Origin: a virus
DNA: 64,000 bases
Reading direction: 5' to 3' (one strand)
Virus record (IMG/VR): IMGVR_UViG_3300031555_005516
Positions 56,122 to 58,289 of the stretch are shown here, in pieces. Position 1 is the stretch's first letter, and the number at the start of each line of letters is the position of its first letter. The notes under the pieces were generated by a model that had not been told where the DNA came from, made no database searches, and saw only the letters and a list, made by a program, of their open reading frames with translations. The translations under genes and the position numbers were made by a program.

Positions 56122-58289
56122 ATGGCAGATATTAATTTACTTGAACTAGCCCCCCACTAGGTTAGTCGCACCCTTAGAGGATATTCAGTATTCTTTTATG
56201 GGGAACCGAAGAGTAAACTTTTACTGCTCTCCCTTTAAGAAATTAAAGGGCAAACATCGTAGAAAAAACGGGAAGGTCTTATAGAGATAACCCGAACGGA
56301 AGGGGTGGTGTAATAGCCACCCCACGTGCAACGCATAGTTTTTGAACCTATTATTTTGAAAGGAGCATGTACCGTATATGGACATCACTGAAATGATACA
56401 ATTATATAGCGAAGGAAAATCGCTTACTTTTCTTGCGAATAAATATGGAACCTATCCAGAGAAAATAAAAAATATGTTATAGGCGCAAGGTATTAAAACT
56501 AGAACCCATGCAGAGCAAAATAGAATTACTAATCAAGAACGAGGGAAAAAAGTAAACCACTCTTATTTTGATAATATAGATTCTTTACAAAAGGCTTGGT
56601 TGCTAGGATTCTTAGCAGCTGATGGTAGTATTACTCCAGATAGAAATTCTATTAAATTAGGGCTAAGTTCAGTAGATAGAGAAATTTTGGAAAAAATTCA
56701 AAAAGAACTGGATATTGAAAGAAATATCGTCGATAAAGAAACTAATCAAGGTTTTCAAGTATCAACTTTGGCTTGGAGTAGCGAAAATCACAAGAAAAAA
56801 TTAGCACAATTCTCAATAGTTCCCAATAAAACTTACAAGGGAATGAGACTCCCTGCTTTTGAACAACAATATCAATTAGCTTTTTTCTTAGGCTATTTTG
56901 ATGGAGATGGATGTTTTAAAAATGATGGTAAATATTGCCGTATTGAAATTTGTTCTTATGATCCTAACATTCTTCAAGATTTTACACAGTTAATTGATAC
57001 TGTATTTCATATTCCTCGTGAAGTTTATAAAGAGCCTAAGAAACAACATTATTATACCATTACGTATTCAACTCAACAAGCTGAACTGATTTTAAATACT
57101 CTTTACGAGCTTATGAACCAACAAAAATGTTTTTATTTACAAAGAAAATATATAAAGTATCTAGCGTGGAAAGAACAAAATAATAGAATATAATAAAACC
57201 ACGAGTCTACGACTTCTGATAGACTTAAGAAGAGAAGTTATGCTAAACTGGAATGGAATAAACCATTCGATGACTTAATATAAGGCGGTATTAAGAAATG
57301 AAAGAAATTTCCAGAGTATAGAATAAAAAATCTATAGATAAAAACAAAAGGGTAAAACTACAATCGCCACCAAATTTCCTAATCACTTATTGCTTGGCTT
57401 TGAAAAAGGTTGGAATGCAATCCCCGGAGCTATGGCACAACCAGTTAATAGCTGGGGTGAATTTCGAAAAGTTCTTCGCCAATTAAAAGATCCTAAGGTC
57501 CAAAAGCGTTTTTCTACTATTATTATTGATACAGCTGATATAGCTTATGACTATTGTGAAAAATATATTTGCGCAAATGCACCTCGTGCCGATGGCGGTT
57601 TTGGAGTAGATGCAATAGGAGACATCCCTTACGGGAAGGGCTATAAGATGGCGGCTAAAGAATTTGACGATTGCCTACGCTCAATTCTTCAAATGAATTA
57701 CGGTTTAGTTCTTATCTCACATTCAGTTGATAAGACTTTTAAGGATCAGAATGGCAACGAGTACAATCAGATCGTCCCTACTCTCGATAACAAACCTCGT
57801 AACATCGTTAATAGGATGGCAGATATTATTGGGTATTCTCGTACAGTAGATCTGCCTGAAGGAGGAACCGCTACTAAATTGTTTATGCGTGGAACTCCTC
57901 GATATGTAGCAGGTAGCCGTTTCAAATATACCCCAGATGTTATTGATTTCACTTATCAAAATCTGGTAAATGCTATCTGTGATGCAATTGATAGGCAGGC
58001 TGCAGAAGAAGGTTCAGAACATTTTACTACAAACGATGCAAACCTTTATACCGCATCTAAAGAACTTGATTTCGACGAACTTATGATGCAGTTTAATTCA
58101 ATGATTCAAGATCTTTCAGTTCAAAGTGATGAAGAAACATTTAAAACCTATTGGCAGCCTCGTATTACTCAGATAATCGAAAGCTATTTAGGCAAAGGAA
58201 TGCGCGTAAGTCAATGTTCTCGTGAGCAGATAGAAGCTTTGGATTTGATTGTAACAGCAATTAGAGATTTAATAAATACAGCTCAATAA
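56122..58289 (+). CDS. Sak4/AAA_24-like RecA-fold ATPase, split by an intron: exon 1 56122..56214 (contains one TAG), exon 2 57351..58289
   Basis: exon 1 ends ...VFFYGEPKS, exon 2 begins GKTTIATKF... reconstituting Walker A GEPKSGKTT; exon 1 3' T and intron 3' G; downstream IIIDTADIAYDY / LVLISHS RecA-like motifs. Confidence 0.55.
56215..57350 (+). mobile_element. group-I-like intron inside the Walker A codons of the Sak4-like ATPase gene, carrying a LAGLIDADG homing endonuclease
   Basis: 1136 nt insertion splitting GEPKS|GKTT; contains ORF 56378..57193. Confidence 0.55.
56378..57193 (+). CDS. intron-encoded LAGLIDADG homing endonuclease with one in-frame TAG
   Basis: MDITEMIQLYSEGKSLTFLANKYG...KNML-TAG-AQGIKTRT...WLLGFLAADGSI (LAGLIDADG motif) ... 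second motif FFLGYFDGDGCF. Confidence 0.65.

Follow-up and report, generated by a model that had tools for sequence, protein, structure and literature searches.

What product does a phage gene specify when the codons of its P-loop are held apart by DNA that stops its reading frame, and what kind of element is the DNA between them? The question is raised by a stretch of 64,000 nucleotides (nt) from the IMG/VR virus record IMGVR_UViG_3300031555_005516, the whole of which is called the window here. At positions 56122 to 58289 it carries a gene for a Sak4-like ATPase with an AAA_24 domain, split by an insert that contains an open reading frame (ORF) for a LAGLIDADG homing endonuclease, and each of the two coding sequences has an in-frame TAG codon. 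The account favoured here, in which a group I intron with a LAGLIDADG gene splits Sak4 and TAG is read as glutamine (Gln, Q), is considered highly probable as a whole. The exons, the intron with its elements and the suppressor tRNA described below lie on the plus strand.

The Sak4-like gene and its exon junction

Exon 1 (56122..56214) starts with the ATG at 56122 and has 31 codons, the last of which is AGT at 56214. By direct reading of the window its DNA ends in ...GAACCGAAGAGT, and its translation is MADINLLELAPH, followed by the in-frame TAG and by VSRTLRGYSVFFYGEPKS, with GEPKS at the protein end. The exon-1 reading frame hits a TAA at 56236-38, seven codons past the end of the exon. Exon 2 (57351..58289) opens with GGTAAAACTACA, which encodes GKTTIATKF..., and is closed by the TAA stop at 58287-58289. 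The intervening sequence, 56215-57350, measures 1136 nt; the final base of exon 1 is U, the final base of the intron is G, and the insertion point falls between Ser31 (AGU) and Gly32 (GGU), inside the P-loop codons. The exon and intron coordinates, the length of the insert and the one TAG of exon 1 reported in the initial annotation agree with this reading to the base.

When the exons are joined and TAG is taken as Q, they encode a protein of 343 amino acids (aa), which matches Pfam AAA_24 over profile positions 2-195 of 195 (E = 4.6e-38) and PHROG 124, 'Sak4-like ssDNA annealing protein' (E = 1e-48); the match to AAA_24 covers the profile from end to end. A homologue search through 5.8 billion proteins aligns it without gaps, across the junction of GEPKS and GKTT, to uninterrupted homologues of 343 aa with 72-86% identity, which read ...PHQVSRDLRGYSVFFYGEPKSGKTTIATKFPNHLLL around this point and whose residues 1-31 correspond to exon 1. 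The joined exons are collinear with these homologues at the junction, and therefore the junction is exact. Only after joining are Walker A (GEPKSGKT) and Walker B (IIIDTAD) both intact and the AAA_24 domain full. The proposal that the gene encodes a Sak4/AAA_24-like ATPase, with a Walker A motif that stays broken until 56215..57350 is taken out, is upheld by Pfam, PHROG and the gap-free alignment alike. Among the window and three other phage contigs with near-identical copies of the intron (L004, L025, L027), exon 2 varies at 9.3, 4.8 and 49.8% of codon positions 1, 2 and 3. By its sequence, the gene at 56122-58289 is identified as encoding a RecA-fold ATPase of the Sak4-like, SPbeta YorG type (AAA_24), with predicted annealing activity.

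The neighbours of Sak4 are YorF-like, YorH-like and DnaB-like genes, a composition that identifies the neighbourhood as a replication module of SPbeta type. The closest deposited phages are Enterococcus myoviruses, with about 65% nucleotide identity across part of exon 2, and sequence searches of the PDB with the Sak4 and LAGLIDADG proteins returned no significant match. Directly past the Sak4 stop codon, positions 58295-58349 hold a strong terminator-like hairpin (15 pairs, then a T run), which overlaps a sigma-70-like promoter matching at 11 of 12 positions and having an extended -10 element; this overlap suggests a transcription-unit boundary.

The same protein search also returns products of 285-312 aa, which are 93-100% identical and have no N-terminus. 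The locus can be read accordingly without any splicing, as a 31-aa leader, a free-standing endonuclease and a truncated ATPase that starts from TTG 57390 or ATG 57432 (299 or 285 aa), and public assemblies do annotate such products (P0007 with 299 aa, P0020 and P0031 with 285 aa). These truncated ATPases would have no P-loop, however, and the GKTT codons stand upstream of any start, directly after the terminal G of the intron; exon 1 is conserved and supplies exactly the missing N-terminus, and the spacer bears the covarying ribozyme fold described below. A locus that is not spliced is therefore given next to no credence. For annotation this means that in many public assemblies gene callers have broken the gene up, leaving a stub of 31 codons, an endonuclease and an ATPase of 285-312 aa that has no P-loop, where the correct product is the 343-aa Sak4-like protein.

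Structure of the intron

The insert at 56215..57350 can be folded as a group I intron of IA-like architecture, as indicated by a P1/P10 guide, covariation, thermodynamic folds and conservation; the structure was built by hand and then tested comparatively. Helix P1 (56210..56230) pairs AGAGU at the end of exon 1 (56210-14) with the internal guide GCUCU (56226-30) and places U56214·G56226 at the splice site. P10 pairs the guide UUUUAC (56219-24) with GUAAAA (57352-57), which is bases 2-7 of exon 2, over 6 base pairs (bp). The guide is contiguous, 5'-UUUUAC-U-GCUCU-3', within the first 16 nt of the intron, and the 12 pairs of P1 and P10 together are matched by 8 of 20000 shuffles of the intron leader.

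The P2 hairpin (56231..56250), CCCUUUAA-GAAA-UUAAAGGG, is given by the minimum-free-energy fold and contains the TAA at which the exon-1 frame stops. The 5' strand of P3, UCGUAGA (56257..56263), has its partner at 57206-57212 and is followed by the joining segment J3/4, AAAAA. The P4-P6 domain (56269..56327), which is supported by covariation and by a minimum-free-energy fold with z = -5.3, is built by P4 (CGGG/CCCG, 56269-72 with 56291-94), P5 (56276-88), P6 (ACG/CGU, 56296-98 with 56325-27) and P6a (GGGGUGG/CCACCCC, 56302-08 with 56317-23). The 5' strand of P7, A[C]GCAUA (56331..56337), lies in the R-like element GCAACGCAUAG and pairs with 57239-57244; the invariant G-C pair beside the P7 bulge is the putative guanosine-binding site. 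Positions 56338..56358 form the mini-hairpin P7.1 (56338-47) and then the 5' strand of P7.2, CUAUUAUUUUG (56348-58), which makes 11 bp with the 3' strand CAAAAUAAUAG (57176..57186), overlapping the last endonuclease codons.

In the 3' half, helix alignment places within 57200..57244 a conserved CACGAG, then the 3' strand of P3, UCUACGA (57206-12), P8 (CUUCU/AGAAG, 57213-17 with 57228-32), J8/7 (AGAAGU, 57233-38) and the 3' strand of P7, UAUGCU (57239-44). The register of P8 is ambiguous in the window copy alone, where the energy fold prefers ACUUCU/AGAAGU over CUUCU/AGAAG; the family comparison favours the latter, which sets J8/7 as A[G/A]AAGN. The P9 region (57251..57350) comprises P9 itself (GAAUGG/CCAUUC, 57251-68), an extra hairpin (57274-95), a GNRA hairpin GAAA-GAAA-UUUC (57300-11), a last hairpin UAUAGA-AUAAAAAA-UCUAUA (57317-36) and the terminal G at 57350. 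Energy folding alone gives P2, P4, P5, P6 and P6a (z = -5.3) as well as the P8-P9 hairpins (z = -2.6). The insertion of P7.1 and P7.2 between P7 and the 3' strand of P3 is what we take to mark the IA-like class, and the Rfam alignments of the introns in loci L001 and L054 have the same insertion point.

Two other registers were rejected. A P7 strand in the 3' half (CACGAGU) has no complementary strand, and it is the R- and S-like elements GCAACGCAUAG and AAGUUAUGCU that form P7; a 3' strand of P3 directly after P7 (GUUUUU with AAAAAC) clashes with P4 and is unsupported in the relatives. An intein is rejected because the insert lacks a Hint domain, is out of frame and has many stops. The insert is unlikely to be a group II intron, as it has no reverse-transcriptase ORF and begins with AAACU and not with GUGYG, the start of group II introns. 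Promoter-like sites within the intron are no commoner than in shuffles, which leaves an intron-internal promoter unsupported.

Intron family and covariation

An exact search of IMG/VR with 48 nt of the intron gave zero matches, and diverged homologues were found by scanning IMG/VR with a pattern from the putative P4/P6 region. In all, eight more copies of the family were recovered from other phage contigs, three near-identical and five diverged. Besides the near-identical copies in L004, L025 and L027, the family includes an intron of L041 at the same Ser/Gly site, in a Sak4 gene with 77-81% protein identity in its exons, and introns of L045 and L071 at another site, between DIPWG and GGY, in more distant AAA_24 genes; L071 holds a second intron of the same family. 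Interruptions of these AAA_24 genes at positions other than the Ser/Gly site lie at about 6790-6932 in L041, 6899-7979 in L045 (reverse), and 408-1496 and about 1690-2738 in L071 (reverse). Family members of about 230-300 nt with no ORF occur in the unrelated IMG/VR contigs L054 (2985-3224), L056, L058, L069 and L070. The copy in L054 gives a sub-threshold match to Rfam Intron_gpI (28.3 bits, where the gathering score is 50; E = 0.0023), and there the model uses P7 strands equivalent to those assigned by hand in the window intron. L054 has in addition a second group I intron at 2203-2408, which scores better (46.7 bits) than its family copy.

The helices were compared in a gap-free alignment of ten copies (the window, three near-identical and six diverged), with strand order checked as collinear by script; it has nine distinct rows, L025 and L027 being merged for their identical helix strands. 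In the registered helices 98.2% of cells have standard pairs, versus 71.0% in shuffles, 46 of 59 pairs have changes on both sides, versus about 27, and the covariation score is 0.681, versus 0.189; none of 500 shuffles attains the observed values. As a control, sliding the 3' partner by 1-3 columns leaves 34-47% of cells paired. Compensation is seen both in peripheral helices and in the core (P3, P4, P6 and P7), with two-sided changes in 6 of 7 pairs of P3, 1 of 4 of P4, 8 of 10 of P6/P6a, 3 of 6 of P7 and all 5 of P8.

P1 covaries to GGGGU/GCCCC in L045 and L071, and its U·G pair is kept in all six copies with a defined P1. P10 has 6 bp in the window, 5 in L045 and 4 in L071. P2 is fully compensated in L041 (CUUAUUUG/CAAAUAAG) and P7 in L056 (GCGCA/UGCGC), with the G-C pair by the bulge kept in 9 of 9 copies; in P7.2 all 7 counted pairs covary across the family. 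The GNRA tetraloop is GAAA or GCAA in close relatives, and the terminal G is present in each of the 8 distinct family copies that are complete and whose 3' end can be placed. Between the four near-identical copies, 3.7% and 2.6% of sites are variable in the non-coding intron segments, versus 25.4% at third positions of the ORF, which makes the non-coding parts about eight times more conserved than synonymous ORF sites.

Several observations weigh against an intron at this place. An Rfam scan of the whole window at the gathering threshold has no group I match, and the covariance-model check proposed in the initial annotation gives no match of RF00028 to the window intron in 56000-57500 at E <= 10; because Rfam finds nothing there, the structure was established comparatively. 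The helix alignment was registered by hand and leans towards the structure, its strand order and positions having been checked by script. P10 has just 3 bp in L041, and P7.2 is interrupted by a G-A mismatch in one of the close relatives, L004. A metagenome scan for the ligated-exon sequence found 8 intron-less alleles with about 70% nucleotide identity, none of them near-identical to the window, and no spliced complementary DNA or transcript. Energy folding and non-coding conservation are two independent checks, and both agree with the hand-registered alignment. On this comparative evidence the insert at 56215-57350 is judged to be a real group I intron, with predicted self-splicing, and the earlier remark on its group-I-like U and G boundaries is borne out by comparative structure.

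The LAGLIDADG endonuclease gene

The loop of P7.2 contains an ORF of 271 codons (56378..57193), identified as a LAGLIDADG homing endonuclease by Pfam, PHROG and codon-position variation. Direct reading places a ribosome-binding site, AAAGGAG (56359..56365), 12 nt ahead of its ATG, and the GGAG is placed likewise in L041, L045 and L071. The protein matches Pfam LAGLIDADG_3 in two stretches (70.8 bits), LAGLIDADG_WhiA (28 bits) and PHROG 4645 (E = 9e-43), and one chain has two LAGLIDADG motifs, LLGFLAADGS and FFLGYFDGDGC, with acidic catalytic residues. Staphylococcus K-like phages have relatives at 27-30% identity that bear the annotation of intron-encoded endonuclease, and further relatives are found in crAss-like and Lak phages; a search of IMG/VR with the protein gave two relatives only, at about 32% identity. 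Placement of the ORF in the P7.2 loop recurs, with different sequences, in L041 (P7.2 of 7 bp), L045 (8 bp) and both introns of L071 (11 and 9 bp).

Codon 35 of the endonuclease (56480..56482) is an in-frame TAG, which is CAA in L004 and TAG in L025 and L027. An insert-borne LAGLIDADG gene with an in-frame TAG had been claimed from the start, and the 70.8-bit match, the two motifs and the TAG at codon 35 all agree with it. Between the window, L004, L025 and L027, the ORF varies at 4.4, 2.6 and 25.4% of codon positions 1, 2 and 3, and pairs of copies differ by 32-56 nucleotides with just 4-9 amino-acid differences. Because of this third-position excess and of the CAA/TAG alternation among relatives, the ORF is read as translated through the TAG and under selection; the gene is intact, with purifying selection on both sides of the TAG.

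The TAG could instead be a premature stop that has killed the endonuclease and left the intron as an immobile, fixed passenger that still splices. Read in the standard code, the ORF does end after 34 codons, no in-frame ATG follows shortly, and the next listed start, TTG 56600, lies inside the first LAGLIDADG motif. Against this, positions 1 and 2 vary 6-10 times less than third positions along the entire ORF, downstream of the TAG too, and codon 35 alternates between CAA and TAG in relatives; TAG stands on conserved Gln positions of Sak4 in many loci, a tRNA with anticodon CUA is encoded, and divergence is lower in the intron than in its host exon, which recent spread would predict. A dead endonuclease is thus quite improbable, and the gene is treated in what follows as intact and read through its TAG.

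TAG codons and the suppressor tRNA

The tRNA with anticodon CUA is encoded at 41933..42008, as called by ARAGORN and by the Rfam tRNA model (53 bits), and forms a cloverleaf with a U1·C72 mismatch and G73; U1 and G73 are compatible with Gln identity, though only by analogy. In Sak4 the in-frame TAG at codon 13 (56158..56160) sits on the Q of PHQVSR, which is invariant in the alignment with uninterrupted homologues. Among 24 loci this codon is TAG in 12, CAG in 6, CAA in 3 and a Val codon in 3 distant loci, and TAGs also replace Q at a second Sak4 position. Of the 68 long ORFs of the window only three terminate in TAG: a frameshift artefact, an ORF whose read-through gives a plausible membrane protein, and an 80-codon ORF at 40080-40322. 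These observations assign to the phage genetic code 15, with TAG for Gln, and both Sak4 and the endonuclease would need TAG decoded as Gln and hence the phage tRNA-CUA. The dependence of the endonuclease on a suppressor tRNA, as put forward in the initial annotation, agrees with a TAG that needs decoding as Gln and with a tRNA-CUA gene in the window.

The frame of a ligase-like gene at 36233-37638 (PHA02142, OB-fold) is closed by TAG 37466, with a plausible continuation in another frame at 37423-37638. TAG 37466 was rejected as a true terminator since the gene continues in that other frame, and the break is an apparent frameshift, programmed or due to assembly error. The window has an array of about 20 tRNA genes at 19179-27377, one of which (21038-21112) has the four-base anticodon ggat according to ARAGORN, and a tRNA-Thr(agt) at 6446-6515 that is called by ARAGORN and not by Rfam; it has no tRNA-Gln with a standard anticodon. 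In the intron-less Sak4 of L011, near position 3600, a TAG stands in Walker A (G*PKSGKT, the asterisk marking TAG) where others have a Glu or Asp codon, and the motif would be GQPKSGKT if TAG is Gln.

The window has 18 in-frame TAGs in about 12,850 codons, and 13 of them are in three nuclease ORFs: the LAGLIDADG gene, a GIY-YIG/NUMOD1 nuclease ORF at 40993-41850, which has 7 and is separated by 82 nt from the tRNA-CUA gene downstream of it, and an ORF with a C-terminal GIY-YIG domain at 52389-53582, which has 5. TAG makes up 18% of Gln-type codons in these three ORFs versus 1.3% elsewhere (Fisher p = 4e-8). An Rfam scan of 27400-44000, near the TAG-rich nuclease ORFs, detected no other intron.

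The TAGs could act as a timer, in which ribosomes would halt at endonuclease codon 35, and at Sak4 codon 13, until tRNA-CUA builds up. A harmful endonuclease would then be made late, when co-infecting genomes offer homing targets, and selfish genes of nuclease type would be preferentially recoded. The accumulation of 13 of 18 TAGs in three nuclease ORFs, at 18% versus 1.3% of Gln-type codons, favours such a timer, and Borges et al. (bioRxiv 10.1101/2021.08.26.457843) proposed the same for Agate phages, where an early gene contains a group I intron with a TGA-recoded endonuclease. The single TAG of the LAGLIDADG gene is dispensable, however, being CAA in L004, and Sak4 has a TAG of its own, which leaves no differential control within the locus; moreover the enrichment is carried by the two GIY-YIG ORFs, and the one at 52389-53582 is not clearly a homing endonuclease. 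A timer of this kind is rather unlikely.

The broader idea, that selfish nuclease genes are selectively loaded with TAG and that the suppressor tRNA, encoded downstream of one of them, gates the timing of the endonucleases as a phage control of mobile elements, is doubtful in like degree. If true, it would make recoding a phage-level control of mobile elements in a lineage unrelated to crAss-like and Agate phages. The initial annotation had tied expression of the endonuclease to the recoding system, and this stands in the trivial sense that its translation needs the suppressor; separate control does not follow, as Sak4 needs the suppressor too, and a regulatory role for the endonuclease TAG is a matter of inference only. 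A timing function of the TAG codons is possible but unproven. The most economical reading is that the TAGs reflect a long residence of gene and intron in a lineage that reads TAG as Gln.

Probable mobility and a rival intron

Between the copies in the window, L004, L025 and L027, mean pairwise divergence is 5.7% for the intron with its ORF and 12% for exon 2; the intron thus has about half the divergence of the exon, which is consistent with its recent lateral spread among lineages. Empty sites, with AARAGT followed at the insertion point by GGTAAAAC, are found in at least 8 metagenomic alleles, and the intron-less allele L076 reads TATGGAGAACCTAAGAGTGGTAAAACTACAATTGC at the target. The Ser31 codon is AGU in all five alleles with the LAGLIDADG intron, as P1 requires, and in intron-less alleles it is ACC, AGC, AGU, UCU, UCA or UCG.

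Loci L001-L003, whose exon 2 is 97% identical to that of the window, and L005 (93-94%) are without the LAGLIDADG intron. They carry a group I intron of 987-991 nt with an HNH_3/NUMOD endonuclease, inserted after GGU, 3 nt downstream of the window site. The HNH intron of L001 (1796-2785) is detected by Rfam Intron_gpI with 34.2 bits (E = 1e-6) and is unrelated to the window intron. The two introns were found together in none of the loci examined.

Related phages have further interruptions in their AAA_24/Sak4 genes, around residues 47, 95 (after IIIDTA), 127 (between DIPWG and GGY) and 176-188, and the intron family of the window occupies three of those sites, at about 95, 127 and 176-182. Inserts of about 1 kb are also present in the AAA_24/Sak4 genes of L017 (4064-5032), L020 and L079. 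The gene family looks like an intron hot spot, and the presence of one intron family on several of its sites would offer a natural system for the study of intron-site competition.

Proposed splicing and homing

The primary transcript would fold into a group I ribozyme with a core built by the P3/P7 pseudoknot, P4-P6 and P8. Its internal guide, UUUUAC-U-GCUCU, would grip the end of exon 1 through P1, whose U·G falls at the point of cleavage, and the first bases of exon 2 through P10. Exogenous guanosine held at the G-C pair of P7 would attack after U56214, the terminal G57350 would then take its place, and the exons would be ligated as GAACCGAAGAGU to GGUAAAACU, which would restore GEPKSGKT. 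With the ORF in the terminal loop of P7.2, the two halves of the ribozyme could meet despite about 820 nt of coding sequence between them. The endonuclease would be translated independently from its own Shine-Dalgarno sequence and, by analogy with intron-encoded LAGLIDADG enzymes, would cut intron-less Sak4 alleles in mixed infections at ...AAGAGT, directly before GGTAAAAC...; the cut allele would then acquire a copy of the intron. We infer from sequence comparison the GTP-initiated self-splicing, the cleavage of intron-less alleles with homing and the charging of the tRNA with Gln.

Comparison with known systems

It is a classical finding that phage genes of DNA metabolism have group I introns with homing-endonuclease ORFs in the codons of their catalytic sites, and phage introns of subgroup IA with free-standing endonuclease genes are found in T4 td (I-TevI), in the DNA polymerase gene of SPO1 (I-HmuI) and in Staphylococcus phages Twort and K. 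The window intron resembles them in its site in a highly conserved catalytic sequence of a DNA-metabolism gene, in the U·G of P1, P10, the terminal G and the extra helices between P7 and the 3' strand of P3, in an ORF that is looped from a peripheral helix and has its own ribosome-binding site, and in an in-frame stop soon past the 5' splice site. Its LAGLIDADG protein is 27-30% identical to the 'intron-encoded endonuclease' ORFs of K-like phages. Unlike these introns, it has the ORF in P7.2, a core too diverged for Rfam RF00028, and a TAG sense codon both in the ORF and in the host exon. The literature that was searched describes no intron in Sak4/AAA_24 genes or at the Ser/Gly position of Walker A, which is weak evidence of absence. 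For RNA biology the locus adds a covarying group I family that the Rfam model misses and that recurs at several sites of the AAA_24 gene family.

The host protein has its counterparts in the core-only RecA-like single-strand annealing proteins, among them Sak4 of phage HK620, and in YorG of SPbeta. It shares with them the AAA_24 domain, GEPKSGKT, IIIDTAD and a place in a phage replication/recombination module, as read here from sequence, and differs from them in its 343 aa and in a C-terminal extension of about 110 residues beyond AAA_24.

Recoded introns have been described in crAss-like phages, where the Zeta/Delta group has introns and inteins with TGA or TAG and where both PolB exons and intron ORFs contain TGA that requires suppression (Yutin et al. 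2021, PMC7886860). Agate phages have a preferentially recoded (TGA) group I intron endonuclease in an early gene, and in-frame stops were proposed to delay its production (Borges et al. 2021, bioRxiv 10.1101/2021.08.26.457843). The present locus is like these cases in having a group I intron in a replication-type gene, an intron ORF with reassigned stops that needs a phage suppressor tRNA, and endonuclease genes enriched in the recoded codon. It differs in that TAG is read as Gln, in a phage of about 136 kb with an SPbeta/Herelle-like replication module (YorF / AAA_24 / YorH / DnaB) that is neither crAss-like nor an Agate phage, and in a LAGLIDADG gene with a single TAG that is polymorphic with CAA. 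Recoded intron endonucleases are thus already known in phages and the principle is not new. For the biology of recoding, the locus represents an independent lineage, whose replication module is Firmicutes-phage-like and whose intron and free-standing nuclease genes both have reassigned stops; these nuclease genes support the published proposal that recoding gates selfish elements, without constituting a test of it.

Rivalry between introns at neighbouring sites is described for SPO1/SP82 and for T-even phage families. Similarly, near-identical phages (97% in exon 2) carry here either the one or the other intron, 3 nt apart, after AGU or after GGU, and unlike in those families both sites lie within one pair of P-loop codons. 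What this well-supported case adds is a group I family undetected by Rfam, the layout with the ORF in P7.2, the occupation of several sites in one gene family and the presence of rival introns 3 nt apart.

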